Positions 36,271 to 64,000 of a DNA stretch of 64,000 nt are shown here, piece by piece (within the stretch, counting starts at the first letter, position 1; each line of letters starts with the position of its first letter). The notes beneath the pieces are model-generated. The model saw only the letters and a program-made list of their open reading frames with translations. It did no database searches and had not been told where the DNA came from. This DNA is from Pseudomonadota bacterium. Its GTDB lineage: Bacteria; Myxococcota_A; UBA796; UBA9615. A program made the position numbers and the translations under genes. The stretch lies in NCBI GenBank assembly GCA_024229515.1, contig JAAESI010000275.1:131181-195180 (forward strand), written 5' to 3'.

Positions 36271-36289
36271 GTTCATCTCCGAACCAGTT

Positions 36290-40849: not shown

Positions 40850-40858
40850 GCGGCGACT

Positions 40859-42136: not shown

Positions 42137-42138
42137 AG

Positions 42139-42230
42139 GTCACCGGCCGACGTCGCGCATGGGCACTTCAGTGACCACCCGCCCACGCGGGTGCGGGTTG
42201 ACACCCCTCCCGCCAGCCTGCTGAAGTGCC
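42139..42230 (+). promoter_or_regulatory. nested dyad symmetry flanking a TTGACA box upstream of PilZ gene
   Basis: GGTCAC(42139)..GTGACC(42171); GGCACTTCAG(42162-42171)..CTGAAGTGCC(42221-42230); TTGACA 42198-42203. Confidence 0.35.
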
Positions 42231-42252
42231 ATCCAGAGGACGGGTCCACCCC

Positions 42253-42606: not shown

Positions 42607-42615
42607 GCTGAGTCC

Positions 42616-44010: not shown

Positions 44011-44042
44011 GGAGCGTCAACTACGTGGGCATCCCAGCGGCG

Positions 44043-44658
44043 TCAACCACCTTCGATGGTGCGGTAGCCCGGAAGCTCGGCGTAGACGAAGGTCTCGAGG
44101 GCGAGCTCAGCGCCGGTGCGAACGTTGGACAGGACGACCTCGGTCTGGTCGCCGAACGGGGTCGTCACGGTCAGACCGGCGACGAGCCCGGTCTTGGCAT
44201 CGAAGCGCACGGCGATCGTCCCCAGGGTGTCGTTGGGGTCCTTGGGAGCGAGGTTCAGGCCTCCGCCCTCGGTGGCGGCGACGGTGTAGTGCGTCTCCAC
44301 GTCCTGCAGCCCGGTGAGGAACCCGAAGTACCGGGCCAGGGCCCCGGTCATGCCCCGGTAGACCGTGCAGGTCTTCTCCCGGCTGTCGACGATCCAGAGC
44401 GTGTCGCCATCGCTGAGGTAGTCCTGCCCGCCGGTGAACTTCCAGGCGAGCTTGCCGGGCTTGGCCAGCGCGATGGTCCCCTTCTGGACCAGGGGCTCCA
44501 TGTAGGACATCCCGGTGGAGGTCTGGACGAAGTCCCCCTGCAGCGTGGTCACGTCCTTGTAGGCGGCGGCGACGGCGGCGAGGCGCTCCTGCACCGGATC
44601 GGCGGGCTCGCCCGCGGACGCGACCGCCGGCAGCAGAAGAGCCGCCAGCAGCAGGGAT

Positions 44659-44669
<11 letters not shown>
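44043..44669 (-). CDS. lolA: outer-membrane lipoprotein carrier protein LolA-like
   Basis: Signal peptide MTIRSLLLAALLLPAVASA, 208 aa, FVQ / LWIVD pattern; start overlaps ftsK stop, as ftsK-lolA in many proteobacteria. Confidence 0.7.
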
Positions 44670-47622
<2,953 letters not shown>

Positions 47623-49309: not shown

Positions 49310-50330
49310 CCGCACCCAGCGCAATCGGGGCGCCGTCCTGCGCCATGGACTTCTGCCCCGCGCAGAGGATGCGAACCACATCCAGGCCCTGCTGACCGGG
49401 GGTGTCCGGCTCCCGGTGCTCCCGCACGCAGTCGACGAAGTGCTGGCACTCGATCGCCAGCGGCTCGCTCATCTTCAGGCTGGGGATCCAGATGTCGCCC
49501 TGCCGCAGTGCGATGAGGTCGGCGTAGGAGTCGTAGTCGACCTGCCGGTCCGCGCCCTTGTCGTAAATCCGGATCTTCTCCGTGGGCACCGTGTCGTCGA
49601 ACGTGACCATCTTGCGGCTGCCCACCAGGGTCATGTTCCGGATCTTGTGGGGGTCCAGCCAGGAGGTGTGGATCTCGGCCGTCTGGCCACCCGCGAACTG
49701 CAGGTTGGCGAAGACGACGTCCTCGTTTCCCGGCCGGATGTAGCTGTTGCCGCGCGCGCTCACGTTCCGGGGGGCGGCGCCGAGCAGGTACAGGATGATC
49801 GAGACGTCATGGGGAGCCAGGGACCACCACGCGCTCTCGTCCTTGCGCACGATGCCGAGGTTCAGGCGCTGGCAGTACAGGTAGTAGATGTCGCCGATCT
49901 CGCCGGCCGTGATCTGCCCCTTAATCCACCGGATTCCGGGGTGGTAGATCATCAGGTGGCCGACCATCAGGATGCGATCGCGCTCCTTGGCCAGTCGGAC
50001 CAGCTCCTCCGCGTGGGCCTCCTCGAGGGCCAGCGGCTTCTCCACGTAGACGTGCTTGTCGGCCAGCAGCGCCGCCTTGGCGAGCTTGTGGTGCGACGCA
50101 GCCTCGGTGCACACCGCGATCGCGCCGATACTCTGGTCGTCTAGGAGCTTGGCGTAGTCGTCCGTGATCGTAGCATCGGGAGCAAAAGCAGCCGCCCGCG
50201 CGCGGTTGCGCTCGTGCAGATCGGCGACCGCGACGAGGCGGGCGCCCTTGCGGTTGGCGAAGTTGCGTACGAGGTTCTTGCCCCAGTAGCCGGCGCCTAC
50301 GACGCCCAGTCCGAGATCCTGATCAGCCAC
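49302..50330 (-). CDS. Gfo/Idh/MocA-family NAD-dependent UDP-sugar dehydrogenase (WbpB-like)
   Basis: GVVGAGYWGKNLV Rossmann motif, EKPLA, 342 aa; directly follows hexapeptide acetyltransferase. Confidence 0.85.
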   Translation of the reverse strand: MADQDLGLGVVGAGYWGKNLVRNFANRKGARLVAVADLHERNRARAAAFAPDATITDDYAKLLDDQSIGAIAVCTEAASHHKLAKAALLADKHVYVEKPLALEEAHAEELVRLAKERDRILMVGHLMIYHPGIRWIKGQITAGEIGDIYYLYCQRLNLGIVRKDESAWWSLAPHDVSIILYLLGAAPRNVSARGNSYIRPGNEDVVFANLQFAGGQTAEIHTSWLDPHKIRNMTLVGSRKMVTFDDTVPTEKIRIYDKGADRQVDYDSYADLIALRQGDIWIPSLKMSEPLAIECQHFVDCVREHREPDTPGQQGLDVVRILCAGQKSMAQDGAPIALGADG

Positions 50331-50901
50331 GGCTCACCGCTCCATCTTTCAACACGTAGCCCTCCCCGGTCCCGGGGCAGACGGCGGTGCCGTCGTCTCC
50401 GAAGTGGAGCCGTTCCCCGCTGGCGGAGACCCACCCCAGGTGCTTGGCCGGCACGCCCACGACGAGGGCGTAGGCGGGGACGTCCTTGGTCACGACGGTG
50501 CCTGCACCGACCATGCTGTAGTCGCCCAGGTTGTTGCCGCAGACGATCGTCGCGTTGGCCCCGACCGTCGCCCCGACGCCGACCCGGGTGGGCCGGAACT
50601 CGTCCTTGCGCTCCACGTGGGCGCGCGGGTTCAACACGTTCGTGAACACGCAACTGGGCCCCAGGAACGCGTCGTTGCAGACGGTCACGCCCTTGTAGAT
50701 CGAGACGTTGTTCTGGACCTTGACCCCGTTCCCGATGGTCACGTCCCGGTCGACGTTGATGTTCTGACCGAAGATACAGCGCTCACCGATCACGGTTCCG
50801 CTCTGCACGTGGTTGAAGAACCAGATCTTGGTTCCCGCGCCGATCTCGACACCATCGTCGATGTAGCTGCTGGGATGAACGAAGAAGGATCCGCCGGTCA
50901 T
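50323..50901 (-). CDS. left-handed beta-helix (hexapeptide) N-acetyltransferase (WbpD-like)
   Basis: Tandem hexapeptide repeats (IGERCIFGQNINV.., VGAGTVVTKDV), 192 aa from MTGGSFFVHP. Confidence 0.8.
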   Translation of the reverse strand: MTGGSFFVHPSSYIDDGVEIGAGTKIWFFNHVQSGTVIGERCIFGQNINVDRDVTIGNGVKVQNNVSIYKGVTVCNDAFLGPSCVFTNVLNPRAHVERKDEFRPTRVGVGATVGANATIVCGNNLGDYSMVGAGTVVTKDVPAYALVVGVPAKHLGWVSASGERLHFGDDGTAVCPGTGEGYVLKDGAVSRG

Positions 50902-50912
50902 GGCGGCGAAGA

Positions 50913-52151
50913 CTACCGGAATCCGAGCGAGACGCCGAGATTCACGCGGTTGTCGATGTACTCGCCCACATTGCTGCTGGACGGATTCACTGCGCTGAAC
51001 TGGTAGCCAGCGAGGATGTGGAACCACTGCGCGACCATCACCTCGATGTTCGCCGCGCCCAGGAACTGGTGCTCCGTACGCGGGATGCCGGGGTCCGAAC
51101 CATCCGCGTCACCCTCGATGTCGCGGTAGGTGTAGACGAAGCGGGCGCCGATGCCGAGGCGGTCGGCGATCGTGCCCTTGTACTTGAAGTACGCCTGCGT
51201 ATCGGTGATGTGATACGCGTAGTAGTGGAAGCTGAAGTCGCGGTTGAAACCGAGCGCGAGGCGCTGGCTGATGACCGGACGGAGCGCGATCTCCGCGGTG
51301 CCGATGAGCCCCTCGAGGCCGGTCAGGTTCTGAGCCTGAAGCGCCTGCCCCAGGTAGACGTTGCCGTACCCGATCATGCCCATCATGGAGAGCTTGCGGG
51401 TCACGTCGCCCTTGAGGCCGGCCTTGGCCCGCCAGTGGGTGTTCTCCACCGCGGCGTCGTGATTGGCGGCGGCCGAAGGACCGACGAAGATGTGACCCAC
51501 GTCGGCGTCCACCAGGAGGTGGCTCCGGGGGAAGAACTTCCAGTCGAGCGACATGCCGCCGCCGACGTCGTGGGTCTGCCCGAGGATCTGCGCGTTCGGA
51601 TCGAAGACCGGGTAGTAGGACCGCACGTACTCCCAGTGACCGTCGATGCCGATCTGGAAGGCTTGCGTGGGGCGAAGGCGGAACTCGATCGGAACCGCCA
51701 CACTCAGGTCGTAGCTGAGGTCGCTGCCCTCTTCGACGCCGACGTCAGCGCCGCGACGGCCCCGACGGTTGGCGAACTCGGGCGAGGTCCAGAATCCGAA
51801 CTTGCCCTGCCGGTTCGCATCGATGGTCGTACCGAGGCCGAAGCTGGCGAGGTCGCGCAGCGCCGAGTGGTCGATGCCGGCAACGTTGAAGTACGTGAAG
51901 AACCGGTAGTAGGCGTTCAACTCCCAGCGGAAGTTGTCGCCCGGGTACACGAACGCGAACTTCGGGAGGATCGTCAGACCGAGGTCGGCGTCGGGAGAGC
52001 GCTGCTCGCGGTAGACGTTCGAGTCGTAGACCGCCTCGATCTTGATGCTGGGCTTGGCGACCAGCGGGCCAAGCGGAAGCCCGTCGTCGGCGGCGAGGCC
52101 AGACGCGGGAACCAGCAACGTGAGGGCTACCGCCGCGACCGCGGCGCGCAT
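50913..52151 (-). CDS. putative outer-membrane beta-barrel protein
   Basis: Signal peptide MRAAVAAVALTLLVPASGLA; alternating aromatic/hydrophobic strands, Y/F/W-rich; ends ...LGVSLGFR. Confidence 0.45.
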   Translation of the reverse strand: MRAAVAAVALTLLVPASGLAADDGLPLGPLVAKPSIKIEAVYDSNVYREQRSPDADLGLTILPKFAFVYPGDNFRWELNAYYRFFTYFNVAGIDHSALRDLASFGLGTTIDANRQGKFGFWTSPEFANRRGRRGADVGVEEGSDLSYDLSVAVPIEFRLRPTQAFQIGIDGHWEYVRSYYPVFDPNAQILGQTHDVGGGMSLDWKFFPRSHLLVDADVGHIFVGPSAAANHDAAVENTHWRAKAGLKGDVTRKLSMMGMIGYGNVYLGQALQAQNLTGLEGLIGTAEIALRPVISQRLALGFNRDFSFHYYAYHITDTQAYFKYKGTIADRLGIGARFVYTYRDIEGDADGSDPGIPRTEHQFLGAANIEVMVAQWFHILAGYQFSAVNPSSSNVGEYIDNRVNLGVSLGFR

Positions 52152-52290
52152 TCGCGCATGCTTGAAATGGACCTTGTTCAGCCCCACCAGTTCGTATCTC
52201 CGCCTCAAACTCAGCTGCCTCGCCGTCGGGTGTGCGCCCCGGCAGGGCTCCTTGTGCCTCAATGCTGCCTACGAATCAACCCTGGGGCCC

Positions 52291-52836
52291 CTAGTCGACC
52301 GGCGACGAATCGGGGGGTCGCGTGGACCCACCGTCGGCTCCGCCGAACTCCGTATCCGCGCTGTCCGAACCCTCGAATCGAACAACTACTCGAGTCTGTC
52401 CGGGGAACGACGTCCCCACCTGGCCGATGCAGGCCTCGGCCTCAGCCGTGACCGCCTGGCCCTGCTCCCGCGCGATGTACGCCTTGCGGAAGTTGTGCTC
52501 CTGAAGATCCGCGTTCTCGCGGGCGACCGCCTCGGCGAGCCCGTGCTCGGCGTCCTGAGCGACCTTGTGCAGGCCCTTGAGCAGGCCAAGCTTCTCGTTC
52601 AGGCAGTTCAGGAGAATGACGTCGTTGGTGGATGCAGCGGTCTCGATCAGACCGAGCACCAGCTTCATGGACGCGTCCAGCTCATCGACCGTGGCGGAGG
52701 CGAAATCGTCTTTTTGCTTGGCGGTGAGGTCGGATCCCATGATCTCATCGCTGGTCGGTTCTTCCGCGGCGAGCGCGGGAACCGCCAGAGCAAGCGCGGC
52801 CACAAGGGCCAAGCTGCTGAGCCAAATTCGGGGCAT
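52291..52836 (-). CDS. secreted hypothetical protein
   Basis: Signal peptide MPRIWLSSLALVAALALAVPALA; 180 aa, helical. Confidence 0.45.
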   Translation of the reverse strand: MPRIWLSSLALVAALALAVPALAAEEPTSDEIMGSDLTAKQKDDFASATVDELDASMKLVLGLIETAASTNDVILLNCLNEKLGLLKGLHKVAQDAEHGLAEAVARENADLQEHNFRKAYIAREQGQAVTAEAEACIGQVGTSFPGQTRVVVRFEGSDSADTEFGGADGGSTRPPDSSPVD

Positions 52837-52939
52837 GTAGGCGCTACCTCGACTCATGTGGACCTCTCCTGCAGCGGACCGGAGCCACAGTGACTGAGTA
52901 TGGGTTCGCTTAACCCACCTGTCAAACCAGCCTTATCGG

Positions 52940-54361
52940 CTACTGCTTCGCGAGGATGAATGGATAACCAGCGACTTCCATGTCGTCCTCGGGAGGAGGA
53001 ACGAACCGAATGCGTGCGACCACCTTCTTGATGCAGTCCGCGAGCGCCGCGTTCCCGGTCGTGTTGGCAGCGATCTGAACGCCTCCGACGTTGCCGGAGG
53101 TGTCGATGTCGAAGGACACCGTGACCTTGCCTCCAAGGTCGGGGTTGCCCTTGAGTTCCTTCTCGTAGCACTGCTTCACCCGCCCGGTGTAGCGCTTCAT
53201 CGTGCGCGCTACGGACGTGGTGTCTTCGGGACTGCTGGAGACGATGTCCGCCGACCCGGTGCTGACGTTGCCCTTGATCTCGACCTGCTTGGCCTCGACG
53301 GAACCGCCGGGACCGCCGCCGGCGCCGCCGAGCTCACCGGAGCTGGCCGCCTCGTCACCGCCGCCACCGCCTCGCAGACCGGCCTGGTCCGCGTCGCGAC
53401 GGGCCACGGCTACGCCGGAGGAGTTCGCGAGCGCAGAGCCCACGTCGTCACTCAATGAGCCTGCGTCGGACAAGAGATCGGCGACCGCGGATCCGGACTC
53501 GGTGTCACCGGCCGTACCGATGATCGCGAGCAGACCCTTGCTGCTGACCTCTTCCTCGAGACGCTCAGCCCGATCTTCGGCGGACTCGACCGGCTCTTCA
53601 GCCTGCTCGCCCGCATCCTCGGCCGCAGGAGCCTCCGTCGGAGCCTCTTCAGGCTCGTCGTTGGCGGCCACGTCCTCGCCTTCGCCTTCCTCGTCCGAGG
53701 GCAGCTCGGTGGGCGGCGGCGGATCGGTCGGAAGCATCAGCTTCACGAATCGATCGGGGAAGTCCTCCAGGCGCAGCTTCTTGGGCGGCGGCTGGCTCTC
53801 GATCCAGATGACACCGGCGGTGTGGAGCAGCGCCGACAGGAGGAGGATCGCGAGGAAGACCCAGTCGACGTCTTCCCAGCGCCAACCGCGGAAGTCGCTG
53901 TTGCGACGGCGCAGGGGCTGCGGGGGAGGAGCGACGAACTGGAACAGGACCGTGTAGTCGCCGACGTAGACCTTGCCGCGGTTGCGCTCGGTCAACGCGA
54001 GGGCATAGAAGCTGCCCTTCTTCTTGGCGCGGCCCTTCTTGCCCAGGGTCGCGAGGGTCTCGATCTTGTCACCGACCGAGACCTTGCCGTGCATCTTCGT
54101 CGTGAACTGGAGCGCGTAGCGCCCGCCGCGCGGGGAGAAGATCTCGAATCGTTTGGCAGGGGCCGTGTCGGCAGGCACCACCACCGTGCACTTGGGGTGG
54201 TCCCCCACGGTCACGGCCGTGCTGGCTGGAATCAGCCGCTCTTCGATGATTCGGCCGTTGTGGATCACGCCGATCCGGAGAATCTTGCTCTCCGGCGCAC
54301 GCTTACGGTTCGGAGCCTTCGCCCCTCCCGTTTTTCCCGCCCTAGCTGGCTGAGCCGCCAT
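52940..54361 (-). CDS. TonB C-terminal-domain protein with large cytoplasmic N-domain, TM and Pro/acidic linker (GltG/GltJ-like)
   Basis: C-terminus GKVTVSFDIDTSGNVGGVQIAANTTGNAALADCIKKVVARIRFVPP fits TonB_C fold; TM WVFLAILLLSALLHTAGVIWI; PPPKKLRLEDF Pro-rich; last gene of operon. Confidence 0.65.
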   Translation of the reverse strand: MAAQPARAGKTGGAKAPNRKRAPESKILRIGVIHNGRIIEERLIPASTAVTVGDHPKCTVVVPADTAPAKRFEIFSPRGGRYALQFTTKMHGKVSVGDKIETLATLGKKGRAKKKGSFYALALTERNRGKVYVGDYTVLFQFVAPPPQPLRRRNSDFRGWRWEDVDWVFLAILLLSALLHTAGVIWIESQPPPKKLRLEDFPDRFVKLMLPTDPPPPTELPSDEEGEGEDVAANDEPEEAPTEAPAAEDAGEQAEEPVESAEDRAERLEEEVSSKGLLAIIGTAGDTESGSAVADLLSDAGSLSDDVGSALANSSGVAVARRDADQAGLRGGGGGDEAASSGELGGAGGGPGGSVEAKQVEIKGNVSTGSADIVSSSPEDTTSVARTMKRYTGRVKQCYEKELKGNPDLGGKVTVSFDIDTSGNVGGVQIAANTTGNAALADCIKKVVARIRFVPPPEDDMEVAGYPFILAKQ

Positions 54362-54417
54362 TCCGCCCTCTCGCCCCTAGCGGGGCATCGCATTGCGCAG
54401 AGTCAGTCTGCCGGGAA

Positions 54418-54436
54418 GGTCGACGTGCTGTCGACC
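54418..54436 (-). other. stem-loop GGTCGAC-n5-GTCGACC between exbD and TonB-like gene
   Basis: Perfect 7-bp inverted repeat immediately after exbD stop; weak U-tract; possible attenuator. Confidence 0.3.
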
Positions 54437-54444
54437 CTCGGGGG

Positions 54445-54927
54445 CTACTCGCCGCCCTTGTAGACGACGAACTTGAACTCGGCGAACTGCGCCTGGCCGG
54501 CCGTGTACATCACCTCACGCACGAGGCTGAACGGGATGTTCCGGTCGCACTGCAGGAGGATCCGTCCCGAGAAGGAGATGGTTTGACGGGACTCGGCAAT
54601 CGCCTTCGCCTCGTCGGCCTTCTCCTTGAGGATATCAAACAGGGGGGAGATCAGCGTCCCCCGCTTGTACTCGTCACCGACCATGCCGGCGCTGACGTCG
54701 ACCACCTGAACACCATCCACGAGGATGCCGCTCTGCGAGATGACGGCGTTGACCGCAACCTCGGGCGACTTGCTCGAGCTGGAGACGGGCAGTCGCAGGT
54801 CGTCCGACGGTGCGATCTGGATGTCTTCGGTGGAGTACGACTTGAGGAGGAACACCAAGATGATGGTCATGATGTCCATCAAGCTGGTGATTTCGAGCTT
54901 GGCCTCGTCGACCTTCCTGCGCGGCAT
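54445..54927 (-). CDS. ExbD/TolR-family biopolymer transport protein (AglQ/AglS-like)
   Basis: LEITSLMDIMTIILVFLL TM with conserved Asp, 160 aa. Confidence 0.8.
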   Translation of the reverse strand: MPRRKVDEAKLEITSLMDIMTIILVFLLKSYSTEDIQIAPSDDLRLPVSSSSKSPEVAVNAVISQSGILVDGVQVVDVSAGMVGDEYKRGTLISPLFDILKEKADEAKAIAESRQTISFSGRILLQCDRNIPFSLVREVMYTAGQAQFAEFKFVVYKGGE

Positions 54928-54939
54928 CTCGTTCTCCCT

Positions 54940-55650
54940 CTACTTCACGCCGCCCGCGACGACGACATAGGGGAAGAGGGCCGAACGCTCGGTCTCTCCG
55001 TCCTTGGCGTAGTCACGGGTGGCATCCATGACCCCTACGATCGTGTGGTACTTCACGTCGGGGTTGGGCGCGATGATGACGTTGCAGACCTCCGGCGGGG
55101 CCCAGCCTTCGGGGCGGGGATCCGGGGGATCGCAGGGCTCGTCGTAGTCAGGGTTGCCGTCACCGTCCGCGTCGACCTCCTTGAGCTGAACCATCAACTC
55201 GTGGAGCGCGCGGGCGTCGTGGCAAGGCGTCACCTGGTTGGGGACGCAGGCCGGGTCGCCCCGGCAGATCGTCTCACCGCAGTACTGAGTGTCCTGCGTG
55301 AGCGTGATCGTGGTGCACTTGTCGTCTTCGCTGACGCCGCCGGGACCGCCGGAGGCGGCACCCTTCTCGCAGCCGAGGACCGCAGCCGAACCGGCCACGG
55401 TGTAGCCCTCGTCCGTCACACCGACCGTCAGGTTCAGGGGAGGAGTCTCGTCCTCGTCCTTTTCCTGAGAGGGGTTCGGCTGACCGATGGCAGGCAGCGA
55501 CGAGTCGATCACCGCGAGGGTGACGAACTGGATGGACACCAACAGGAACGGGATGAGCAGAGTCATCAAGTTCATGAAGGGGAGCAGATTGAGTTCCGGT
55601 GGCTCGGTACTCTGAACGCGCCTTCGATCAGACGGCTTGTGGTCGCTCAT
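54940..55650 (-). CDS. ExbD/TolR-family paralog carrying a Cys-rich periplasmic insertion
   Basis: ELNLLPFMNLMTLLIPFLLVS ExbD-type TM; periplasmic part has 8 Cys (CEKG..C..YCGETICRGDPACVPNQVTPC..PCDPP..EVC) absent from canonical ExbD. Confidence 0.7.
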   Translation of the reverse strand: MSDHKPSDRRRVQSTEPPELNLLPFMNLMTLLIPFLLVSIQFVTLAVIDSSLPAIGQPNPSQEKDEDETPPLNLTVGVTDEGYTVAGSAAVLGCEKGAASGGPGGVSEDDKCTTITLTQDTQYCGETICRGDPACVPNQVTPCHDARALHELMVQLKEVDADGDGNPDYDEPCDPPDPRPEGWAPPEVCNVIIAPNPDVKYHTIVGVMDATRDYAKDGETERSALFPYVVVAGGVK

Positions 55651-55736
55651 GTGGCCTCGCTGGGGCGGAAAGACGGACGCCGACGGTCATTGGACAGTCA
55701 GCGTCCGGGCAGGTTCCCAAAAAACGAAGGCTTGGG

Positions 55737-56393
55737 CTAACCCTCGCCACCGTCCTCCTTGAGCGTTCCGCGCTGGCGGGCCGTCAGGAGGTTGATGAGC
55801 TTGACGCTGTACTGGTCAATCTCGTCGATCAGCTTCACCGTACGGTTCGTGATGATCGAGTGGGCAATCATGGTCGGAATGGCCACGACGAGCCCGAAAG
55901 CGGTCGTGTACATGGCGACGGAAATACCCTGGGCCAGCATCTGCTGCTTCTCTTCCGGCGCAGCCGTAGCAACCGCCTTAAAGGCGATGACCAGACCGGA
56001 AATCGTGCCGAGAAGGCCCGTCAGCGTCGCGACGTTTGCCCACATTCCCAGATACGGAGTCCGCTTCTGGAGCATGGGAATCGTCTCAAGCGTGGCCTCG
56101 TCCACGGCGTTCTGGATTTCCAGAGCGCTGCGGTTGGCGCGGGTAAGCCCGGCCTTGAGGACGCGCGTCAGCGCAGAGTTGCTCTCGGCGTTGCAGAGCT
56201 TGATGGCGCGGTCGATGTTGTTGGCCATCACCAGCTTCTGGATCTGGGCCATAAAAGCCGCGCCGTTGATGTTGTAGCGGAAGAGGATCATGTAGCCGCG
56301 CTCGATCACGGTCGCCATTGCGATGACCGAGATCACGAGGATCACGTACATGAACTCGCCGCCCTCCCGGAAGAAGTCCAGCACGAACATCAT
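55737..56393 (-). CDS. MotA/TolQ/ExbB-family proton channel (AglR-like)
   Basis: 3-TM topology, GLLGTISGLVIAF...AQGISVAMYTTAFGLVVAIP; AGGAGG RBS 8 nt upstream of ATGATG. Confidence 0.85.
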   Translation of the reverse strand: MMFVLDFFREGGEFMYVILVISVIAMATVIERGYMILFRYNINGAAFMAQIQKLVMANNIDRAIKLCNAESNSALTRVLKAGLTRANRSALEIQNAVDEATLETIPMLQKRTPYLGMWANVATLTGLLGTISGLVIAFKAVATAAPEEKQQMLAQGISVAMYTTAFGLVVAIPTMIAHSIITNRTVKLIDEIDQYSVKLINLLTARQRGTLKEDGGEG

Positions 56394-56523
56394 TGGTCAA
56401 ATACCTCCTGGCGGAATCGAAACGCGATTCGGGTCTGTCGGGGGTCGAAAATCCCCCCCTTGGGGGCGACGACCGGTGGGTTTTACAGGGAAATCCCTTT
56501 GGGGGGAAGAGTGGACGAGATCT

Positions 56524-56772
56524 TTAGAAGGGCTTCTTGTCCACGGACTTTACGATCTTCGGAATGAAGCTCTCTTTGAGCTGGAGGGTCTCGAGATCCT
56601 CCTGCTCCTGACGGGTGATGATGTAGCCCACTTCAGGCTTGTGGACGTAGCCTTCTACCACCGAACCTTCGGTGTCTTCGCCGAAGACTACCTTCTTGCG
56701 CTGGGCATCCGCATCTGCGGCCCACAAGGTGGCGCTAGCGGCCACGAGAAGGGTCAAAAGAATCCGGGTCAT
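56524..56772 (-). CDS. small secreted protein (GltF-like position)
   Basis: Signal peptide MTRILLTLLVAASATLWAADA; 82 aa; ATG overlaps upstream stop (ATGA). Confidence 0.5.
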   Translation of the reverse strand: MTRILLTLLVAASATLWAADADAQRKKVVFGEDTEGSVVEGYVHKPEVGYIITRQEQEDLETLQLKESFIPKIVKSVDKKPF

Positions 56773-58100
56773 GGCGCGGCTCCTTCTTCAGCGGGCGGGG
56801 CCTCCTCGACAGGAGCAGGCTCTTCGGCGGGCGGGGGTTCTTCGGCGGGGGGAGGCGCAGACTCGCGTGCTTCACGCTGCTTCTTGCGATCTTCCTTCCG
56901 CTTCAACTTTTCCATCTCCGCGATGTACTCGCGGATCGGATCTTCTTCGCCGACGACGAATCCCTGACCTTCACGAACGGCGATGTACTCGTTGTACGTG
57001 TCGATCGACCGAGCGTAGTCCTTGAGGAAGTCGCCCTGGAGGATCCCCAGGTTGCGAAGCGCTTCGTCGCGCAGCTCGCTGTCGGGATCCGCGGCGATCT
57101 CTTCGTAGATCTGCTCCGCTTCCTCCAGCTTGCCGATCCCCCGGAGGGCGACGGCGTAGCTCAACTGAATGACCTGGTTGCCGCTGTTGGAGCCGTAGGC
57201 GGGCTCCAGCAGGTCGTAGGCACCCTGGTAGTCGAGGTTCCGGAGGCGGAGGTGGGCGAGGTTGACCCGCGCCCCGATCTCGTTGGAATCCAGCGCCAGC
57301 GCCGCCTCGAACGAAGCGGTCGCCTGGAACTCCTTGCCCATGCGCCAGTACACGAGGCCGAGGTTGGTCTCGAGCATGGCGGCGGTGTCGCCTCCGGGCA
57401 AGCTCTTGGCCTTCTGGAAGACGAACCGGGCGGTCTCGAACCGGCCCAACTCCATGTACGCCAGCCCCAGCGTGTTGAACGCATCGATGCTGTTGGAGTT
57501 GATCCGGAGGATGTTCTGGGCCGCTCGGACGGCGTCGTCGGCGCGCCCCTTCTTGAGGAGGATGCGGGCCTGTCCGGCGAGCAGCCGGTCCTCCTTGGGC
57601 GCACGCCCGAGCCCCTGCGCGTAGAGCAACTCCGCGTCGTTGAGGCGCCCTTCGCGCTCGTAGGCGATGCCGAGCGCCACCCGGGCTTCGACCTGCTCGG
57701 GATCCGTGGACATGATCGACTCAAATTGCTCGATCGCGCCCTCACGGTCGTTGGCCTGGAGGTAGGCCATGCCGAGGTTGAAGCGAGCCTCTGGGAAGTC
57801 CGGCTTCAGCGCGAGCGCGTCCTGGAGCTTCTTGGCGACGCTGAGCATCCACATGGTGGAGCCAGGGGCGAGGCCGCGGCTCTCGCCGACGGCCTGCTCG
57901 AACAGCTCCATGGCCTTCTCGTCGGACGTCTTCTCCCAGATGGGATTGCCCTCGGCATCGAACTGCGGGTTGCCGTAGGCGTCGACCGCCTGGAGGCGTC
58001 CGTCGTCGGCGACGAGCCGCTCGGGCGGAGCCTCCTCGGTCTCCTGCGCAGCGGCGGGGACGGCGAGGGCCAGCGACAGAATCAGCGCGAGCTTCTTCAC
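56769..58100 (-). CDS. secreted TPR-repeat protein, about 440 aa (GltE/AglT-like)
   Basis: Signal peptide MKKLALILSLALAVPAAA; >=8 TPR units; C-terminal (PPAEE)n tail; overlaps neighbours by 4 nt. Confidence 0.75.
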   Translation of the reverse strand: MKKLALILSLALAVPAAAQETEEAPPERLVADDGRLQAVDAYGNPQFDAEGNPIWEKTSDEKAMELFEQAVGESRGLAPGSTMWMLSVAKKLQDALALKPDFPEARFNLGMAYLQANDREGAIEQFESIMSTDPEQVEARVALGIAYEREGRLNDAELLYAQGLGRAPKEDRLLAGQARILLKKGRADDAVRAAQNILRINSNSIDAFNTLGLAYMELGRFETARFVFQKAKSLPGGDTAAMLETNLGLVYWRMGKEFQATASFEAALALDSNEIGARVNLAHLRLRNLDYQGAYDLLEPAYGSNSGNQVIQLSYAVALRGIGKLEEAEQIYEEIAADPDSELRDEALRNLGILQGDFLKDYARSIDTYNEYIAVREGQGFVVGEEDPIREYIAEMEKLKRKEDRKKQREARESAPPPAEEPPPAEEPAPVEEAPPAEEGAAP

Positions 58101-61100
58101 GACCCGTCCTCCACGGACTCGATGATGGGCGGAAGCGTGGCGGAGTCGGCGGGGATGACCGTCGTCTCTTCAGGCTTCGGCACCGGGTAGGCGTTCGGAT
58201 CGATCTTCGAAAGCTCCTCGAGCGCCTTGCCGACCCACTCGGTGTAGCGCTTCTTCTCCTTGGCGAAAGTCACTACGGCCGTGAACAGCGTGTTTGCCGT
58301 GTCCTCGAACGGTTGGGCCTTCTGGAGCAGCACGTCGGAGTACAGGAAGAAGCGATCCACCTCGTCCATGTCTTCGCTGTCACCGTCGAACGGGTTCGGC
58401 GCCTTCAGCCAGGTGAGCTGGTGGTTTCGGAAGCTCTGGGCCTTGTAGTACAGGGCCGCCGTCTGCCACTCGAAGTCGGGGTAGTTGACCACGAAGTCGT
58501 CCATCATCTGGGCGATCCGGGTGTTCTCCGCGATCTTGCGGTCGACGACCTCCTGCAGCACGTCCGCGTCCGTGGAGTTCGGAATCGTGATCTCCGCGTA
58601 GGCCTCGTACTCGACGATGAGCGGCTGGAAGGCCAGCTCGGCGACGATCTTCAGGCCGATGGATCCACCGTTCTTGGTCAGCTCCGGCCGCATCGCCTCG
58701 TAGGAGACGGTGATCTCCTCCAGCATGCGGTCGGCGTCGCGGTTCTTGCCCGCGTCCCGGGCGAACCCGGCCAGCTTGAACTTGGTCTCGACCCAGCGAT
58801 CTGCGTCGGTGTCGCCGTAGTTGGTCATCCACTTCTCGTAGATGTCCTTGGCCTCTCGAGTGTCCCCTTCGGCTTCCCACAGCTCCGCGGCGCGGAAGAG
58901 CAGCAACGGCGACTCCTCCTTCTCCGGGTAGGTGTCGTGGTACTGCTCGTAGGCGCGGGCCGCGTCGGCGAAACGCTCCAGGCCGATGGCGAGGAAGCCG
59001 GAGTTGTACAAAGCGTTCGGCACGTCGTCGTGCGTCGGATGGAACTCCATCAGGTCCTTGTAGTACCCGACGGCCTTCTCCAACTCGAAGAGCTGCTCGA
59101 AGTTCTGCGCCATCTTCCAGAAGGTGTTCGGCGCCTGCTCGCTGTGCGGGAACCGGTCCAGCAGGACCTCGTAGTAGCGCGTGCTGTCCGCCGCCCGACC
59201 GACTTTGCTGTAGGCCAACGCGATGTTGTAGACGATGTCGTCGATCTGCTGGGGGTCCTCGTCGGTGCCGTCGGCACCGTAGAGGTCGTAGTACTCCAGG
59301 AACGACAGCAGGGCGCACTCGAAGCGGCCCAGCCCGTAGTGAATCTCGCCGTCCTTGAACAACGACTGCTTGGCCAACGTGCTGAACAGCGCGTTGCGCT
59401 CCTCGCGCAGGACCTCGTCCTGGCCGAGGTCGAGCATCGCGAACCGCTCCGTGTACTCACGCATGCGGGACAGATCGCCGGTGAGGCGGTAGCTGTCGAC
59501 GACATGGCCGGCCGCGAACGACGCGTAGTCGGTCGAGGGGTGGTCCTCGATGAGCTCCATGAAGGTCAGGCGACCGCGGCCCAGGTGGTTCTTGTAGTAG
59601 TAGATCTGGCCGATGTCGTAGAGGAGGACGGCGAGGCCCTCGTACTCCGGCACCTCACGCTCGACCCAGCGGACGGCGCGGATGTAGTTCTGCTCCAGCT
59701 CGGTGATCGGCACCGTGCTGTACTCGACCTTCTGGCCGAGGGGCGGGTTGATGGTCGCCAGCGCCTCCGGCGTCTTGTCGATGTCCCCGCCGACCTGCTT
59801 CCACAGGTAGTTGTACGAGAACATGATCCCGAGGATGGCGTCCTTGCGGTACTTGTCCTCGGGGAAGCCGAAGAGGCTCGCGTACTGCTTGATCGCCTCC
59901 GCCCAGCCCGTCGTCCACTCGCCGTTTTCCATCTGGAACTTGAGCTCGCCGACCCAGAAGTAGCAGTCCGCGAGGTAGTAGTTCAGCTCGTACGCGTTCT
60001 CGGCGAACGGGTACTGCTCCAGGTACTCAAGGTACTTGTTGGCAGCGAGCAGGTAGTCGTTCGGGTCGCCCGAGGCCTGCGCCTTGGAGTGGTACGCGTA
60101 GGCGACCCACTGCAGGGACTCGAGGATGTACTTGGTCGCCGTGGCGGTGGCGTCCTTGTTGTTCTTGTTCGCCTCGAACCAGTCGCCCTTGAGGCCGTAG
60201 CGGTTCGTCAGCTCGATGCGGGCGCGCGCGGCCGAGTCCGGGTCCGGGATCACCAGGTTCTGGTACAGCACCACGATGCTGTTCTGGAACTCGGGGCCGT
60301 CCGGGTGCAGCGGCTGGAGCTCCTGGAGCTTGTAGTAGGCGGCGATCGCCTCTTCGAACCGGGCCTGGTCCTTGAGGATCGTGGCCAGCTCCACCAGCAC
60401 GGTGTAGGCCCACGGCTCGTCGCGCCGCCCCGTCAGCCTGCTCAGGGCGAAGTCGATCGGCGACATGTCGGCCTCGATGGCCTGGTCGGAGAAGGAGATC
60501 GCGAGGTACCGGATCGCCTCCGGCTTGAGGTCCGCCTCGCGGCCGGTCCGGGCTTCCTTGCGCTCGGCCCACTCCAGCAAGGTCATGAACCGATCGACCG
60601 CGACGTCAAGGTCATCGACCTTGTAGTAGGCCCACGCCAGCTTGTAGAGGGCGAGCTCGTACAGGCGCGCCTGCACGTTGTCGTCGAGGTCGACGCCGCC
60701 GCCGTCCTCGAACTCCTCGACCACCGTGCGGTAGTAGTAGAGCGCGCGGTCCAGCTGGTTCTCTTCGAAGTAGATGTCGCCGAGCCGGAAGAAGGCCTGG
60801 GCCCGGTAGGGGCTGCTCTCCACGTTCTCGAGCAACGCGAGGTAGGTCTCCTCGGCCCGTTCGGAGTCCAGGTGGCGGCTCGTCTCGTCGCTGTAGCAGT
60901 AGCCCAGCATGTAGTAAACGGCGCCGATCTCGTCATAGTCGGGGAACTTGCGGATCAGCTTCTTGTAGAGCGCGATCGACTTGCGGAGGTCCTTCTGCGG
61001 AGGCTCCGGGAGGAAGTCGAGCTTGCCCTCGTCGAAGAGCATCTCCATCTCGTCGTAGCGCTCGTTGGCGAGGAGGTAGTCCTCGTCCGACTTCTCGAAG

Positions 61101-61666
61101 TACAGCTCCGCGAGCCGGAACATCCGTCGGCCCGTGTAGGGGGAATCAGGGTGATCCTTGATGAAGCGCTCGTGGGCCTCGATGGCAGCTTCGCGGAGCT
61201 GGCGCTCCTCGATGTCGGCCCGGCCGATCAGCTGGTCGTAGCCGTCACGCAGCTCGACGAGCTCCTCGGAGTACTTGCGGCGGATGATCCGGTTCACCTC
61301 ACCGGCGAACTCGAGAGCACGGTCCTCGTAGCGGGAGACCGCGTCGCGCCACGCCTGCAGCTCGGCCTCGTCGACCTCGCCGTTGCCGTCGGTGTCGCCG
61401 GGGATGGCCTCGGGGTCGTCGCCCTCTTCACCGGAGCCGGACTGGTTCGAGGCCTCGCGGCCCGCGCCGACCGAGCCGAAGGCATCGGTGACGACGGTGG
61501 GCAAGCTCTGCTCGTCGAACAGGTTGTCCTCGGTGGTGGTTTCTTCGGGGCCCTCGTCCGGCTTGCAGACGAACTCTTCCTGAGCGCGCTCGAAGTCGCT
61601 CGCGGCCAGGGCGGGACTGGCGATCAGCAGGGACCCGACGGCCCAGCCAACGATGCGGAGGTTCAT
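58097..61666 (-). CDS. giant secreted TPR-repeat protein, 1189 aa (GltD/AgmU-like)
   Basis: Signal peptide MNLRIVGWAVGSLLIASPALA; TPR-like helical repeats throughout; stop/start overlaps on both sides. Confidence 0.75.
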   Translation of the reverse strand: MNLRIVGWAVGSLLIASPALAASDFERAQEEFVCKPDEGPEETTTEDNLFDEQSLPTVVTDAFGSVGAGREASNQSGSGEEGDDPEAIPGDTDGNGEVDEAELQAWRDAVSRYEDRALEFAGEVNRIIRRKYSEELVELRDGYDQLIGRADIEERQLREAAIEAHERFIKDHPDSPYTGRRMFRLAELYFEKSDEDYLLANERYDEMEMLFDEGKLDFLPEPPQKDLRKSIALYKKLIRKFPDYDEIGAVYYMLGYCYSDETSRHLDSERAEETYLALLENVESSPYRAQAFFRLGDIYFEENQLDRALYYYRTVVEEFEDGGGVDLDDNVQARLYELALYKLAWAYYKVDDLDVAVDRFMTLLEWAERKEARTGREADLKPEAIRYLAISFSDQAIEADMSPIDFALSRLTGRRDEPWAYTVLVELATILKDQARFEEAIAAYYKLQELQPLHPDGPEFQNSIVVLYQNLVIPDPDSAARARIELTNRYGLKGDWFEANKNNKDATATATKYILESLQWVAYAYHSKAQASGDPNDYLLAANKYLEYLEQYPFAENAYELNYYLADCYFWVGELKFQMENGEWTTGWAEAIKQYASLFGFPEDKYRKDAILGIMFSYNYLWKQVGGDIDKTPEALATINPPLGQKVEYSTVPITELEQNYIRAVRWVEREVPEYEGLAVLLYDIGQIYYYKNHLGRGRLTFMELIEDHPSTDYASFAAGHVVDSYRLTGDLSRMREYTERFAMLDLGQDEVLREERNALFSTLAKQSLFKDGEIHYGLGRFECALLSFLEYYDLYGADGTDEDPQQIDDIVYNIALAYSKVGRAADSTRYYEVLLDRFPHSEQAPNTFWKMAQNFEQLFELEKAVGYYKDLMEFHPTHDDVPNALYNSGFLAIGLERFADAARAYEQYHDTYPEKEESPLLLFRAAELWEAEGDTREAKDIYEKWMTNYGDTDADRWVETKFKLAGFARDAGKNRDADRMLEEITVSYEAMRPELTKNGGSIGLKIVAELAFQPLIVEYEAYAEITIPNSTDADVLQEVVDRKIAENTRIAQMMDDFVVNYPDFEWQTAALYYKAQSFRNHQLTWLKAPNPFDGDSEDMDEVDRFFLYSDVLLQKAQPFEDTANTLFTAVVTFAKEKKRYTEWVGKALEELSKIDPNAYPVPKPEETTVIPADSATLPPIIESVEDGS

Positions 61667-64000
61667 CAGTAGTCCCCCAGCACGGCGCGGAACGCCTCTT
61701 CGAGGGCCCGCATGCGCCGGACCTTGTCGCGGGTCAGATCCTCGCGGTTCTGACTCGTCGTCTCCTTGCGGTACCAGTAGACGTCGGCGACGCCCATGTC
61801 GGCGCGGACGAGCATGTCTTCGAAGAAGCCGGCCACGTTCATGAACGCGCGTTCGCCGATGCGTCCGCTGACGCCTTCGTTGGAAGTCGCGATGGTCACA
61901 CCCTCACGGTCGAGTTCGCCGACCACGCGGCGCTGGAACTTGACCTCGTCCTTGATGTCGTCGACCTCGGCCGCTTCGGCCCGGTCCATCAGCTCCCGAG
62001 CCGAGCTGGAGAGCCGATCGAGGTCCAGGAGCCGCGAACGGGAAGCGTCGAGGCGGCGGAAGAAGTCACCCCCGCCAGAGGCGGAGCGGCGAATGGTCGC
62101 AAGGCGGCTTTCCGTGCGCGCGAGGCGGGCGCGGGCGTCTCCTCGGTCGTCCGACTCGGCTTCCGTGTCGGCGCCCAGCCGTCCGGTCAGCACGCGCGGC
62201 TCGAGGGACTTCTTCATCTCCCGAAGCTGGGCCTGCATGGCCTGAAGCCCGGTTCGCTCGCCCTCGATGACGCGACGCGCTTCGAGCTCCTGGTCCCGGG
62301 TGCGCTCGCCGCGGTTGCGGGCGTCGACGAGGTACTCCTCGACCGCGATGAGTCGGCCCTGGAGGTCCTTGATGGCCAACTCCAGGTGGTAGATGCGGGT
62401 CTCGACCGCCTGCGCCTGGAGGTTGAAGACCTCCCGCTTCTGGAGGGCGAGCTGACGCTCGGCGGAGACGGACGTGGCGGCGCCGGTGGCGGCGGCGATC
62501 TCAGCCCGAAGGTCCCGGATGTCACCGCGCGAGGAGGCGGGCAGGTTGGCTTCGAGCCAGGCCACCTCGGTCTCGATCAGGCGGGACCGGAGCAGCAGGC
62601 CCGCGGCCTCGGCCGAGGTGAGCTGCTGTCGGTGCAGGCGGTACGTCTGGATGAGTCCGCCCGAGGCGTCCTGGTAGAGCGCCTCTTCGAGAAGATCGAG
62701 GACGTCGGTGGCGTCCTCGATGGCGGCTTGCTGCCGGTAGAGGTCGCCCGAGACGGTCACGGCGTGGGCCACGCGCTCATCGGCGGCGGCCTGCAGGCGC
62801 GCCTCCTCGGGAACCGTCAGGTCGGCCTCCGCGACGAAGTTCGTGTCGACCAACTGGTTGAAGTAGATCATCGGGTCGACGCCCGAGGCGACGATCTGGT
62901 CGACGATGACCTTCAGCTCCCGGAAGTGGTCGCCGGCGAGCTCGTACCGGGCGATCGCGGCGTCGAACTGCTCCATGCGCACGCGGACGTGGCCGGACAG
63001 CAGACGAAGCGTGGGCTCGCGGCGGTCGTCGGGGAACGCGAGGTTGAAGATCTCGATGGCGCGGATCGCCTCTTCGTACTTGCGGGTCCGCTCGAAGCTG
63101 CTCGCGTTCGGGTCCGCGTCGCTACCGATCTGGGAGGCGGCCTCGACGTTCGCCCAGATCATCTCGTACAGGGCGTCCGCGTAGTAGTCGCTGTCGGCCT
63201 GCACCTGGGTGTACTCGGAGATCGCCTCCGGCACGCTTCCGGCCTCGTAGTAGAGGCGCCCGATGGCGATGTGGCAGAGGTCGGCGACCCGCTTGTGATC
63301 GTCCGTGGAGCGCGGAAGCGTGAGGGCCTCGCGGAAGACGACGACGGCCTGCTCGTAGCGCTGACGGGTGAAGTCCTGCTGCCCTTCGCTGATCGCGGCC
63401 TGTCCCTCGGCGACGAGGATGACGCCGCTGAAGTACCGGGCCTGCGGGGTGTACGTGGAGCCACGGGGGAAGGCCGCAAAGATCGCCTGGGCGTCCCGGA
63501 GCTTGCCCTGCCGGTAGAGGCTCTTGCCCATCTCGTAGCGGATGCGCAGCGAGGTCGGGCTGTCGTCCATCGAGCTGCGGACGAAGCGGTTGTAGTACTC
63601 GTTGAACTTGTCGTGGTCGCCGGTGCGGCCGAACAGCTCGATGAGCTTGAGCAGGCTGTCCCCGTAGAAAGGATGCGTGGCGCCCTGATCGACGATCGTC
63701 TGGAAGCGATCCGTGGCCGGGCTCAGGTTGCCGTCCTGGAAGAGGCACTCGGCGAGGTACCACTGGCCTTCGTTGCGCCGCGGATCGCCGCGCAGGTCGT
63801 CGTTCTCCAGCAGCGACCAGAAGATCAGCGCGCAGCGCTCGTAGTCATCGACGAGGTACGCGTACTTCGCCTCGCTGAAGCGCTCGCTGATGATCCGGGG
63901 ACTGCGGGTCAGCGACCCGGTGGAGACATCGGCGCGCAGGGACGAGATGCGGCGCTCGAGTCCGAGCACCTCCGTCTCGACCAGCGCGAGGTCCGTTTCG
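61666..64000 (-). CDS. TPR + coiled-coil protein, 5'-partial (continues beyond window end)
   Basis: Frame open to window edge; N-half TPR-like, C-half long coiled coil; stop overlaps next gene start. Confidence 0.65.
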   Translation of the reverse strand, partial: ETDLALVETEVLGLERRISSLRADVSTGSLTRSPRIISERFSEAKYAYLVDDYERCALIFWSLLENDDLRGDPRRNEGQWYLAECLFQDGNLSPATDRFQTIVDQGATHPFYGDSLLKLIELFGRTGDHDKFNEYYNRFVRSSMDDSPTSLRIRYEMGKSLYRQGKLRDAQAIFAAFPRGSTYTPQARYFSGVILVAEGQAAISEGQQDFTRQRYEQAVVVFREALTLPRSTDDHKRVADLCHIAIGRLYYEAGSVPEAISEYTQVQADSDYYADALYEMIWANVEAASQIGSDADPNASSFERTRKYEEAIRAIEIFNLAFPDDRREPTLRLLSGHVRVRMEQFDAAIARYELAGDHFRELKVIVDQIVASGVDPMIYFNQLVDTNFVAEADLTVPEEARLQAAADERVAHAVTVSGDLYRQQAAIEDATDVLDLLEEALYQDASGGLIQTYRLHRQQLTSAEAAGLLLRSRLIETEVAWLEANLPASSRGDIRDLRAEIAAATGAATSVSAERQLALQKREVFNLQAQAVETRIYHLELAIKDLQGRLIAVEEYLVDARNRGERTRDQELEARRVIEGERTGLQAMQAQLREMKKSLEPRVLTGRLGADTEAESDDRGDARARLARTESRLATIRRSASGGGDFFRRLDASRSRLLDLDRLSSSARELMDRAEAAEVDDIKDEVKFQRRVVGELDREGVTIATSNEGVSGRIGERAFMNVAGFFEDMLVRADMGVADVYWYRKETTSQNREDLTRDKVRRMRALEEAFRAVLGDY

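Follow-up and report, generated by a model that had tools for sequence, protein, structure and literature searches.

A probable G4-type Agl-Glt-like gene cluster with an embedded motor and a putative Wzp-type porin gene in an uncultured bacterium

Introduction

The core complex of the Agl-Glt gliding machinery, GltC, GltD, GltE and GltG together with AglR, AglQ and AglS, is encoded in one region in non-deltaproteobacteria and in Geobacter, where its function is unknown (Luciano 2011, PMC3169522). A locus of this kind lies at one end of a 64,000-nucleotide stretch of contig JAAESI010000275.1 (GenBank assembly GCA_024229515.1, forward-strand positions 131,181 to 195,180; hereafter the window), and it raises the question of which member of the Glt family it represents and on what such a machine may act. 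A sequence-only reading of the window had described eight co-directional genes in 52940-64000 as an Agl-Glt-type envelope motor operon with the gene content of the Myxococcus gliding core, and had pointed to two downstream genes as possible further components. Here, we report that the locus is very probably a counterpart of the G4 cluster of Myxococcus xanthus, that it carries its own motor genes and that it ends in a gene for a predicted outer-membrane porin of a family linked to polysaccharide export. Agl-Glt-like clusters, the G4 type included, were already catalogued in 2011, and the locus is ordinary as an annotation. Its value is comparative: motor, transducer, scaffold, two accessory proteins and porin, which are scattered in M. 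xanthus, are here in one operon.

The GltD-like proteins nearest to that of the window are found in uncultured metagenome-assembled genomes (MAGs) labelled Myxococcota or Deltaproteobacteria (including a Tara Red Sea bin), and in some third-party records Rickettsiales. The host is probably an uncultured, marine member of the Myxococcota.

Results

An eleven-gene operon in conserved order

The eight minus-strand open reading frames (ORFs) of the sequence-only reading are all present at the positions it gave, with the codon bias of real genes (GC content at third codon positions, GC3, of 0.79-0.94 in sequence of 63-75% GC). In the direction of transcription, and with the genes that follow, the features of the window are these:

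61666..64000, minus strand: GltC-like periplasmic protein with tetratricopeptide repeats (TPR) and a long coiled coil; 5' end beyond the window edge, 824 aa when complete
58097..61666, minus strand: GltD-like secreted TPR scaffold protein, 1189 aa, assigned by Pfam TPR matches and orthology to G4 D proteins
56769..58100, minus strand: GltE-like secreted TPR protein, 443 aa, assigned by the NCBIfam GltE model
56524..56772, minus strand: GltF(CglF)-like secreted protein, 82 aa, assigned by the NCBIfam CglF model and conserved position
55737..56393, minus strand: AglR-like MotA/TolQ/ExbB channel subunit, 218 aa, three transmembrane (TM) segments, assigned by Pfam MotA_ExbB and with a ribosome-binding site
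54940..55650, minus strand: ExbD/TolR paralog 1, 236 aa, membrane Asn, periplasmic insert with 8 Cys, assigned by Pfam ExbD
54445..54927, minus strand: ExbD/TolR paralog 2, 160 aa, membrane Asp kept, assigned by Pfam ExbD
52940..54361, minus strand: GltG-like transducer with a TonB-C-like domain, 473 aa, assigned by the NCBIfam GltG and AgmX/PglI models
52291..52857, minus strand: secreted protein of an unnamed family, 188 aa, mostly helical, two invariant Cys, assigned by synteny and alignment
50913..52187, minus strand: predicted WzpB-family 18-stranded outer-membrane beta-barrel, 424 aa, assigned by an AlphaFold2 model and a hidden Markov model (HMM); GTG start at 52187, longer ORF with a TTG start from 52262
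50323-50901, minus strand: hexapeptide acyltransferase (Pfam Hexapep), possibly associated
49302-50330, minus strand: GFO/IDH/MocA oxidoreductase (Pfam GFO_IDH_MocA), possibly associated

The first junctions are overlaps, of 1 nt for C/D and 4 nt each for D/E and E/F. Gaps of 130 nt (F to MotA), 86 nt (MotA to ExbD paralog 1), 12 nt (paralog 1 to paralog 2), 83 nt (paralog 2 to the GltG-like gene) and 82 nt (GltG-like to 188-aa gene) follow. The spacing first described, 4-nt overlaps or gaps of at most 90 nt, thus holds at most junctions but not before the MotA-like gene, whose AGGAGG ribosome-binding site was found as described, 8 nt upstream of the ATG at 56393.

The part of the operon cut off by the window edge could be read from a second contig. 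The 1189-aa protein is also encoded on the 118-kb contig JAANSY012113621.1 (GCA_024449815.1; locus L001), which matches 15.9 kb of the window at 99.975% identity, with 4 mismatches. There the GltC-like ORF is complete (L001:7527-10001, 824 aa) and is overlapped by 35 nt by the first gene of the operon, for a secreted protein of 258 aa (L001:6785-7561). The predicted operon is longer than the sequence-only reading had it, and extends over eleven genes from the 258-aa gene through the 188-aa protein and the barrel. At least two of the four mismatches between the two contigs alter the 188-aa protein, GLAEAVARE against GLADAVALE (52291-52857 versus L001:18810-19376).

Related loci were collected by scanning one genome per species with an alignment of GltD-like proteins; the best 80 loci were kept and searched by tblastn with 15 proteins of the locus. 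The order u258-C-D-E-F-(R-Q-S)-G-d188-barrel recurs far beyond the close relatives, in dozens of Myxococcota genomes. The same gene order is found in most of the 80 independent genomes, and the arrangement is beyond chance. A GltC-like gene holds the same position in more than 60 related loci, the position of the GltF-like gene is conserved as well, and the 188-aa gene follows the GltG-like gene in 46 loci. The motor genes are the variable part, embedded between F and G in 31 of the 59 classifiable loci and missing there in the other 28. Where at least 3.5 kb of sequence was available downstream of the GltG-like gene (55 loci), a barrel gene was present in 48. This conserved synteny supports the earlier suggestion that the genes in 50913-52857 are further components.

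The two accessory proteins belong to families without a name. Pfam gave no match in 38 members of the 188-aa family or 36 of the 258-aa family, NCBIfam gave none for either, and searches of the PDB with sequences and profiles of these two families and of the barrel returned nothing meaningful. The 258-aa protein is a helix with a soluble beta-sandwich, and the 188-aa protein, as read from its sequence, is mostly helical. GltA/B and GltH were considered as identities for the two and rejected, neither being a membrane barrel. Homologs of the 258-aa protein are called 'dihydrolipoamide acetyltransferase' in NCBI MAG records, although no lipoyl or acyltransferase domain was detected; the name probably stems from an Ala/Pro/Glu-rich linker.

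Homology to GltC, GltE, GltF and GltG

Matches to HMMs support every Glt and Agl assignment except GltD. The profile searches that the sequence-only reading had suggested gave matches to MotA_ExbB, to ExbD in both paralogs and to TPR models, many TPR families of Pfam being found in the three large proteins, while Pfam TonB_C fell just short of its cut-off (22.1 bits on the 473-aa protein). Among the Glt models of NCBIfam, GltG (NF033760) gave 138 bits on the 473-aa protein (E 3e-40, cut-off 650), GltE gave 105.7 bits on the 443-aa protein (E 2.7e-30, cut-off 225), GltC gave 51 bits on the 5'-partial gene (E 7e-14, cut-off 450), and CglF, which is GltF, gave 19.8 bits on the 82-aa protein (E 6e-4, cut-off 90). 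No match was thus at equivalog level, and scores so far below the cut-offs argue that these proteins are homologs of the gliding proteins and not the gliding proteins themselves. The 5'-partial gene had been described as a TPR/coiled-coil protein, which it is; its homology to GltC had gone unnamed. Signal-like N-terminal segments were seen by hydropathy in the 1189-, 188- and 424-aa proteins; for the 443- and 82-aa proteins a signal peptide was judged by eye from the translations.

The GltG-like protein has the topology first described, with a cytoplasmic domain (about residues 28-150), a TM segment at 169-187, a Pro/acidic linker and a TonB-C-like domain. The cytoplasmic N-domain has 165 aa in all. 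The C-terminal part of the protein matches the AgmX/PglI C-terminal domain (NF033768; 82 bits, E 2.6e-23, cut-off 40) and the TonB C-terminal model TIGR01352 (32.3 bits, cut-off 27.1). TonB_C is recognised by Pfam in 31 of 40 GltG-like orthologs, and two Cys are invariant in the C-terminal domain; a PDB search with the protein gave a weak TonB match only. The alignment to the GltG model is confined to profile positions 206-646. Since it begins only at position 206, the protein is a GltG-like protein without the N-terminal FHA domain, and Pfam found FHA in none of the 40 orthologs. The membrane-proximal domain of GltG is kept. Cambillau and Mignot describe this domain as FHA-like and model it on AglR together with the TM helix.

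A very probable counterpart of the G4 cluster

All seven Group B genes of Luciano and a GltF-like gene are found in one cluster, in agreement with the sequence-only reading, which had seen here the ancestral core of an Agl-Glt-type machine. Its further label, the Myxococcus gliding core, holds for the family but probably not for the function, as the cluster matches a different paralog. In the order C-D-E-F-G the proteins have 824/1189/443/82/473 aa here, 823/1202/422/120/490 aa in Haliangium ochraceum (Hoch_6494-6498) and 809/1111/490/91/447 aa in the G4 cluster of M. xanthus, which is numbered from the 447-aa protein (MXAN_1919) to the 809-aa protein (MXAN_1923) (Luciano 2011 Table S3, PMC3169522). 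Both MXAN_1922 and Hoch_6495 are GltD homologs according to that paper, whose main text names MXAN_1922 as the gltD homolog. Between the 1189-aa protein and the D proteins of mglA-linked G4 loci, identity is 27-30% across about 1080 aa. In the text version of Table S3 (PMC3169522 supplement 5), the 'homolog to' column for G4 is evidently shifted relative to the lengths and the main text, and GltA homologs are also entered under MXAN_2541.

Related loci in Myxococcaceae, Archangium, Anaeromyxobacteraceae and Hyalangium encode C proteins of 802-811 aa, F proteins of 79-82 aa and GltG-like proteins of 443-447 aa, and their NCBIfam scores are below threshold like those of the window. These lengths fit MXAN_1923, MXAN_1920 and MXAN_1919 and not G1 (whose GltG has 640 aa and an FHA domain), nfs or G5, which identifies the loci as G4. 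The counterpart of the 82-aa protein in one such G4 locus (L053) scored 25.7 bits on the CglF model. An assignment of the Myxococcaceae loci to nfs was rejected on the protein lengths and on their linkage to mglA.

This linkage follows the gene numbering of M. xanthus, where MXAN_1925 is mglA and MXAN_1926 is mglB. A tblastn search with an MglA sequence found a 195-aa gene, 85-97% identical to MglA, in 21 loci, and two more matches were cut off at contig ends. It immediately precedes the 258-aa-type gene, in the same orientation and with a few bases between the two, in Myxococcaceae, Archangium, Anaeromyxobacteraceae and others. Among the best 80 loci, all those of Myxococcaceae and Archangium with enough upstream sequence combine an adjoining mglA with G4-like lengths. 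The same search gave no MglA match in the window or in loci L001-L035. Two loci are of note: a MAG labelled Pseudomonadota (L036) has mglA directly upstream together with an embedded motor, and in Bdellovibrionales (L057) a Bdellovibrio-type cluster without the barrel has mglA 4.5 kb upstream. The position of mglA at the head of the G4-type cluster in many lineages was not mentioned in the literature that we searched.

On this comparative evidence we regard the locus, with high confidence, as a G4-type Glt-like cluster. It shares with G4 and with Hoch_6494-6498 the C-D-E-F-G order, near-identical protein lengths and a short GltG-like protein (about 445-490 aa) that lacks the N-terminal FHA domain, and with the Myxococcaceae G4 loci also the flanking 258-aa-type and 188-aa-type genes and the downstream barrel. 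It differs in having the MotA-like and two ExbD-like genes between F and G, where the candidate motors of the other two species lie elsewhere (MXAN_3003-3005 and Hoch_3390-3392), and, in contrast to G4, the clade of the window has neither mglA upstream nor a Wza-type outer-membrane polysaccharide-export (OPX) gene downstream. Compared with Agl-Glt itself (G1, G2 and M1), the locus has the same AglR/Q/S-type motor, GltG-type transducer and GltC/D/E/F-type proteins, but the scores are sub-equivalog, the GltG-like protein lacks FHA, one ExbD has an Asn, all genes are in one operon, and GltA/B/H/K/I/J and CglB were not seen nearby. No gltA, gltB, gltH, gltK, gltI, gltJ or cglB was recognised in the 23.6-kb locus or the scanned window ORFs, in searches that used no GltA/B/H/K/I seeds. 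The seven-gene core of Gammaproteobacteria and Geobacter (Luciano 2011, PMC3169522) is alike in that one putative operon unites GltC, D, E and G with AglR, Q and S; here a GltF-like gene and three further conserved genes are added, while the gammaproteobacterial core is reported to have an extra gene of its own. In that paper GltF counts among the 'Group A' genes and occurs in Myxococcales and Bdellovibrionales alone. The separate motor M2 of M. xanthus (MXAN_3003-3005) is dispensable for gliding and sporulation.

A predicted motor with one altered axle protein

MotA_ExbB (PF01618) gave 88.5 bits on the 218-aa protein (Pfam cut-off 22.9), and ExbD (PF02472, cut-off 25.4) gave 41.4 bits on the 160-aa paralog and 38.5 bits on the 236-aa paralog. 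Hydropathy indicates three TM segments in the MotA-like protein and one in each ExbD paralog. The best named NCBIfam match of the channel protein is TolQ, with 64.7 bits against a cut-off of 221, and the ExbB equivalog models gave 28-40 bits against cut-offs of 135-206.

The two ExbD paralogs differ at the residue that binds protons. In the 160-aa paralog the membrane Asp is present in 31 of 31 loci (LMDIMT motif). In the 236-aa paralog it is replaced by Asn in 29 of 32 loci (PFMNLMT motif), and only three Bdellovibrio-type loci keep the Asp; the register was aligned by eye to D25 of E. coli ExbD (TPFIDVM). A mid-membrane Asp is stated for both AglQ and AglS (review PMC9389320), and the 236-aa paralog with its Asn departs from this pair. 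The loss of the proton-binding Asp from one of two axle proteins was another feature that our literature search did not find mentioned. The Cys-rich insertion that had been noticed in this paralog was confirmed, with 8 Cys in residues 94-189. The number of Cys in the insert drops with distance, from 8-10 in the closest relatives (L001-L004, L010, L072) to 4-5 in L006-L009, L012 and L013 and 0-2 in distant loci.

The downstream barrel and its possible link to polysaccharide export

The 424-aa protein, earlier predicted to be an outer-membrane beta-barrel, was modelled by AlphaFold2 with 38 homologs as an 18-stranded barrel (pLDDT 88.8, pTM 0.80). Its homologs carry PF10082/PF13505. In Myxococcaceae and Archangium the gene directly after the barrel encodes a class-3 OPX protein of about 200 aa with Poly_export and SLBB domains, and an HMM of 17 barrels encoded immediately before such a gene gave 168 bits on the barrel of the window (E 4.6e-51) and no other match in the window. 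A class-3 OPX gene accompanies the barrel in 28 of the 55 loci with sufficient downstream sequence, among them some with an embedded motor. The identity between the barrel of the window and the myxococcal barrels is about 19-24%. We conclude that the barrel is a homolog of Wzp-type polysaccharide porins and not a barrel of the GltA/B/H type.

The M. xanthus genes for WzaB (MXAN_1915) and for the 18-stranded porin WzpB (MXAN_1916) are 23 bp apart. By this numbering the pair lies two or three genes past MXAN_1919 of G4. Islam 2020 describes mxan_1915 as 'orphan-like', 1.016 Mb from the cluster for biosurfactant polysaccharide (BPS), and G4, Glt and MglA are mentioned neither there nor in a 2026 paper on WzaB. 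The 'orphan-like' wzpB/wzaB pair of M. xanthus is thus found at the tail of the G4 cluster, in a pairing that is conserved across Myxococcota and for which our literature search found no mention. The barrel of the window belongs to the same 18-stranded, class-3-OPX-preceding family; what is missing here is the OPX neighbour.

Discussion

A proposed mechanism

The scheme below starts from gene content, homology, G4 orthology and the synteny of the porin gene as found above; for the protein contacts and the substrate, which we infer, it draws on homology to AglRQS, TolQR and ExbBD and on a structural model of Agl-Glt. In that AlphaFold-based model, the TM helix and membrane-proximal FHA-like domain of GltG sit on AglR5 and the TonB-like domain sits on GltD. 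By analogy, five AglR-like subunits would form a proton channel in the inner membrane around a heterodimeric axle made of both ExbD paralogs, with a protonatable Asp on just one of the two axle proteins, and proton flow would turn or cycle this unit. Binding to the channel may involve the TM helix and the membrane-proximal cytoplasmic domain of the GltG-like protein, whose Pro/acidic linker and TonB-C-like domain may transmit work across the periplasm. The latter domain would dock on a periplasmic scaffold of GltD-, GltE-, GltC- and GltF-like proteins, possibly accompanied by the 258- and 188-aa secreted proteins and terminating at the 18-stranded Wzp-type porin in the outer membrane.

The functional precedent is Agl-Nfs, in which a Glt-like apparatus works together with a Wzx/Wzy-pathway polysaccharide and a Wza/Wzp export pair, acting on the Exo/MASC spore-coat glycan. 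It differs from the present locus in that nfsA-H includes A, B and H barrels and borrows AglRQS, and in the lengths of NfsC (512 aa) and NfsD (1219 aa). Since a Glt-like apparatus is there seen to act on a glycan exported by Wza/Wzp, we favour over gliding, though at less than even odds, a role with a polysaccharide, be it energised export, gating or handling at the surface. The overall explanation that we prefer, and consider fairly probable, is a trans-envelope machine of the G4-type Agl-Glt/Nfs kind that has its own motor in the operon and for which handling of surface polysaccharide is the likeliest job. A narrower version, in which the G4-type machine is the proton-motive-force energiser of class-3 OPX/Wzp secretion and acts through its TonB-like transducer and TPR scaffold to open or drive the Wzp porin, much as TonB does with its receptors, is conceivable but in our judgement improbable. 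If true, G4 and M2 would gain a function and a widespread export route its source of power, and the motor class would be marked by its asymmetric Asn/Asp axle. Where mglA is directly upstream (Myxococcaceae, Archangium, Anaeromyxobacteraceae), MglA may control the machine. Taken together, the place of wzpB/wzaB, that of mglA and the altered axle protein give rise to a hypothesis that can be tested, for a machine that had no known function in 2011 and on which our literature search found no later work.

Several observations weigh against the explanation that we prefer. A Wza-type OPX gene is absent from the window and from its closest relatives, and the barrel of this clade is followed instead by the hexapeptide acyltransferase and GFO/IDH/MocA oxidoreductase genes. 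Foldseek comparison of the barrel with the PDB ranks generic 18-strand porins (MOMP and Occ) first, at a TM-score of about 0.45, with PgaA outside the top 50. In Sandaracinus wzaB is contiguous with genes of the BPS cluster, so that its pairing with G4 is not universal. Every full-length Glt-model score is below the equivalog cut-off, and the GltD label comes from orthology to the GltD homologs listed by Luciano. An insertion in MXAN_1922, described as polar, reportedly left gliding and soft-agar motility unaffected (Luciano 2011, PMC3169522), while mutants of the BPS pathway have swarm phenotypes; this argues against an essential role of G4 in BPS export in M. xanthus. Beyond Luciano 2011 and Wartel 2013, our literature search found no mention of MXAN_1919-1924 or MXAN_3004.

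Alternative explanations

The Glt-like machine and the porin may also be mere neighbours, the machine serving, for example, a polarity-linked process controlled by MglA. This possibility, which we take seriously but rate well below an even chance, would account for mglA directly upstream in 21-22 loci, for the absence of a downstream barrel in 7 of 55 loci, Bdellovibrio-type ones included, and for polysaccharide papers in which wzaB counts as 'orphan-like' and neither Glt nor G4 appears. Set against it is the retention of the barrel in 48 of 55 loci from very divergent lineages, with GltD-like identity down to 27%; this retention is independent of an embedded motor or of mglA and exceeds what is expected of unrelated neighbours. 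That the locus encodes a working gliding machine, a functional equivalent of Agl-Glt, is unlikely. The whole core and a GltF-like gene are present, Luciano 2011 (PMC3169522) argues that Bdellovibrio glides with expanded core clusters that lack GltH/I/J/K, and two loci of Bdellovibrionales (L057, L066) have the same gene order. Yet the cluster matches G4 and not G1/G2/M1, and the MXAN_1922 mutant glides normally. Nor were GltA/B/H-type barrels, GltK, GltI or GltJ recognised within the 23.6 kb of the locus; no Glt model matches either of the flanking accessory families, and the Glt scores lie far under their equivalog cut-offs.

Two further readings fare less well. A divergent relative of Tol-Pal, acting in outer-membrane integrity or in the constriction of dividing cells, would explain why TolQ is the top NCBIfam match of the channel, why the 1189-aa protein gives 113.6 bits on the YbgF/CpoB model (cut-off 90.1) and why FtsK, FtsX, an M23 peptidase and an S41 protease are among the neighbours. 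We think it quite unlikely: the TolQ score is less than a third of its cut-off, the YbgF score is assembled from three separate TPR stretches, the division genes, at a distance of over 3 kb, are not kept in synteny in related loci, TolA, TolB and Pal domains are absent among the approximately 46 window ORFs (Pfam), and in M. xanthus a bona fide Tol-Pal locus exists separately from G4. Least plausible, to the point of being hardly tenable, is a TonB-ExbB-ExbD uptake system with an unusual TonB. The TIGR01352 match and the ExbB/ExbD family matches are what it has to offer, whereas the ExbB equivalog scores are far under their cut-offs, the TonB-like protein carries a cytoplasmic domain of 165 aa, Glt models match four TPR or secreted proteins of the same operon, and the window has no TonB-dependent receptor. 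The Pfam scan of those ORFs gave no TolB, Pal, OmpA-type or TonB-dependent receptor domain, and the earlier statement that this is not a canonical Tol-Pal or TonB locus stands.

Further features of the locus and the window

Promoter and terminator scans of the locus gave chance-level results only. The lone sigma-70-like match in a 15-kb scan (TTGACA-17-CATACT, 10/12) is at 52897-52925 on the minus strand, between the GltG-like and 188-aa genes, and one match is the chance expectation. The 130-nt spacer before the MotA-like gene (56394-56523) contains a CCCCC-AA-GGGGG hairpin, followed by GATTTTCG. This hairpin may be a candidate attenuator or processing site; the terminator scan made no call there.

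The genes just outside the operon are of narrower distribution. The hexapeptide acyltransferase and GFO/IDH/MocA oxidoreductase genes are syntenic only in the closest relatives (L003, L006-L009, L012, L013); we take these enzymes to resemble WbpD- and WbpB-type sugar-nucleotide enzymes. Upstream of the operon, L001:5861-6598 encodes a putative lipoprotein of 245 aa that is rich in Cys towards its N terminus and contains a long series of DDDDSAG/DDDDAT repeats; this gene is likewise conserved in the closest relatives only.

The remainder of the window is ordinary chromosomal sequence, in which no Rfam family or tRNA was found. Its genes encode FtsK, an RNase J-like protein, a MiaB/RimO-like protein, an S41 protease, FtsX, an M23 peptidase, a Ser/Thr kinase, M17 and S8 peptidases and a protein with MopE motifs. 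A run of division and envelope genes occupies 37242-47622 (FtsX, M23 peptidase, S41 C-terminal protease, PilZ, MiaB/RimO-like protein and FtsK); the longest ORF of the M23 peptidase overlaps FtsX, and its true start is probably later. An ORF of 1712 aa at 31183-36321 (minus strand, GC3 0.96) has a weak PPC pre-peptidase match and is otherwise unannotated. The MopE-motif protein (14853-16802, minus strand, 649 aa) contains seven putative metal-binding motifs of the MopE type (Cu-binding_MopE, 210 bits).

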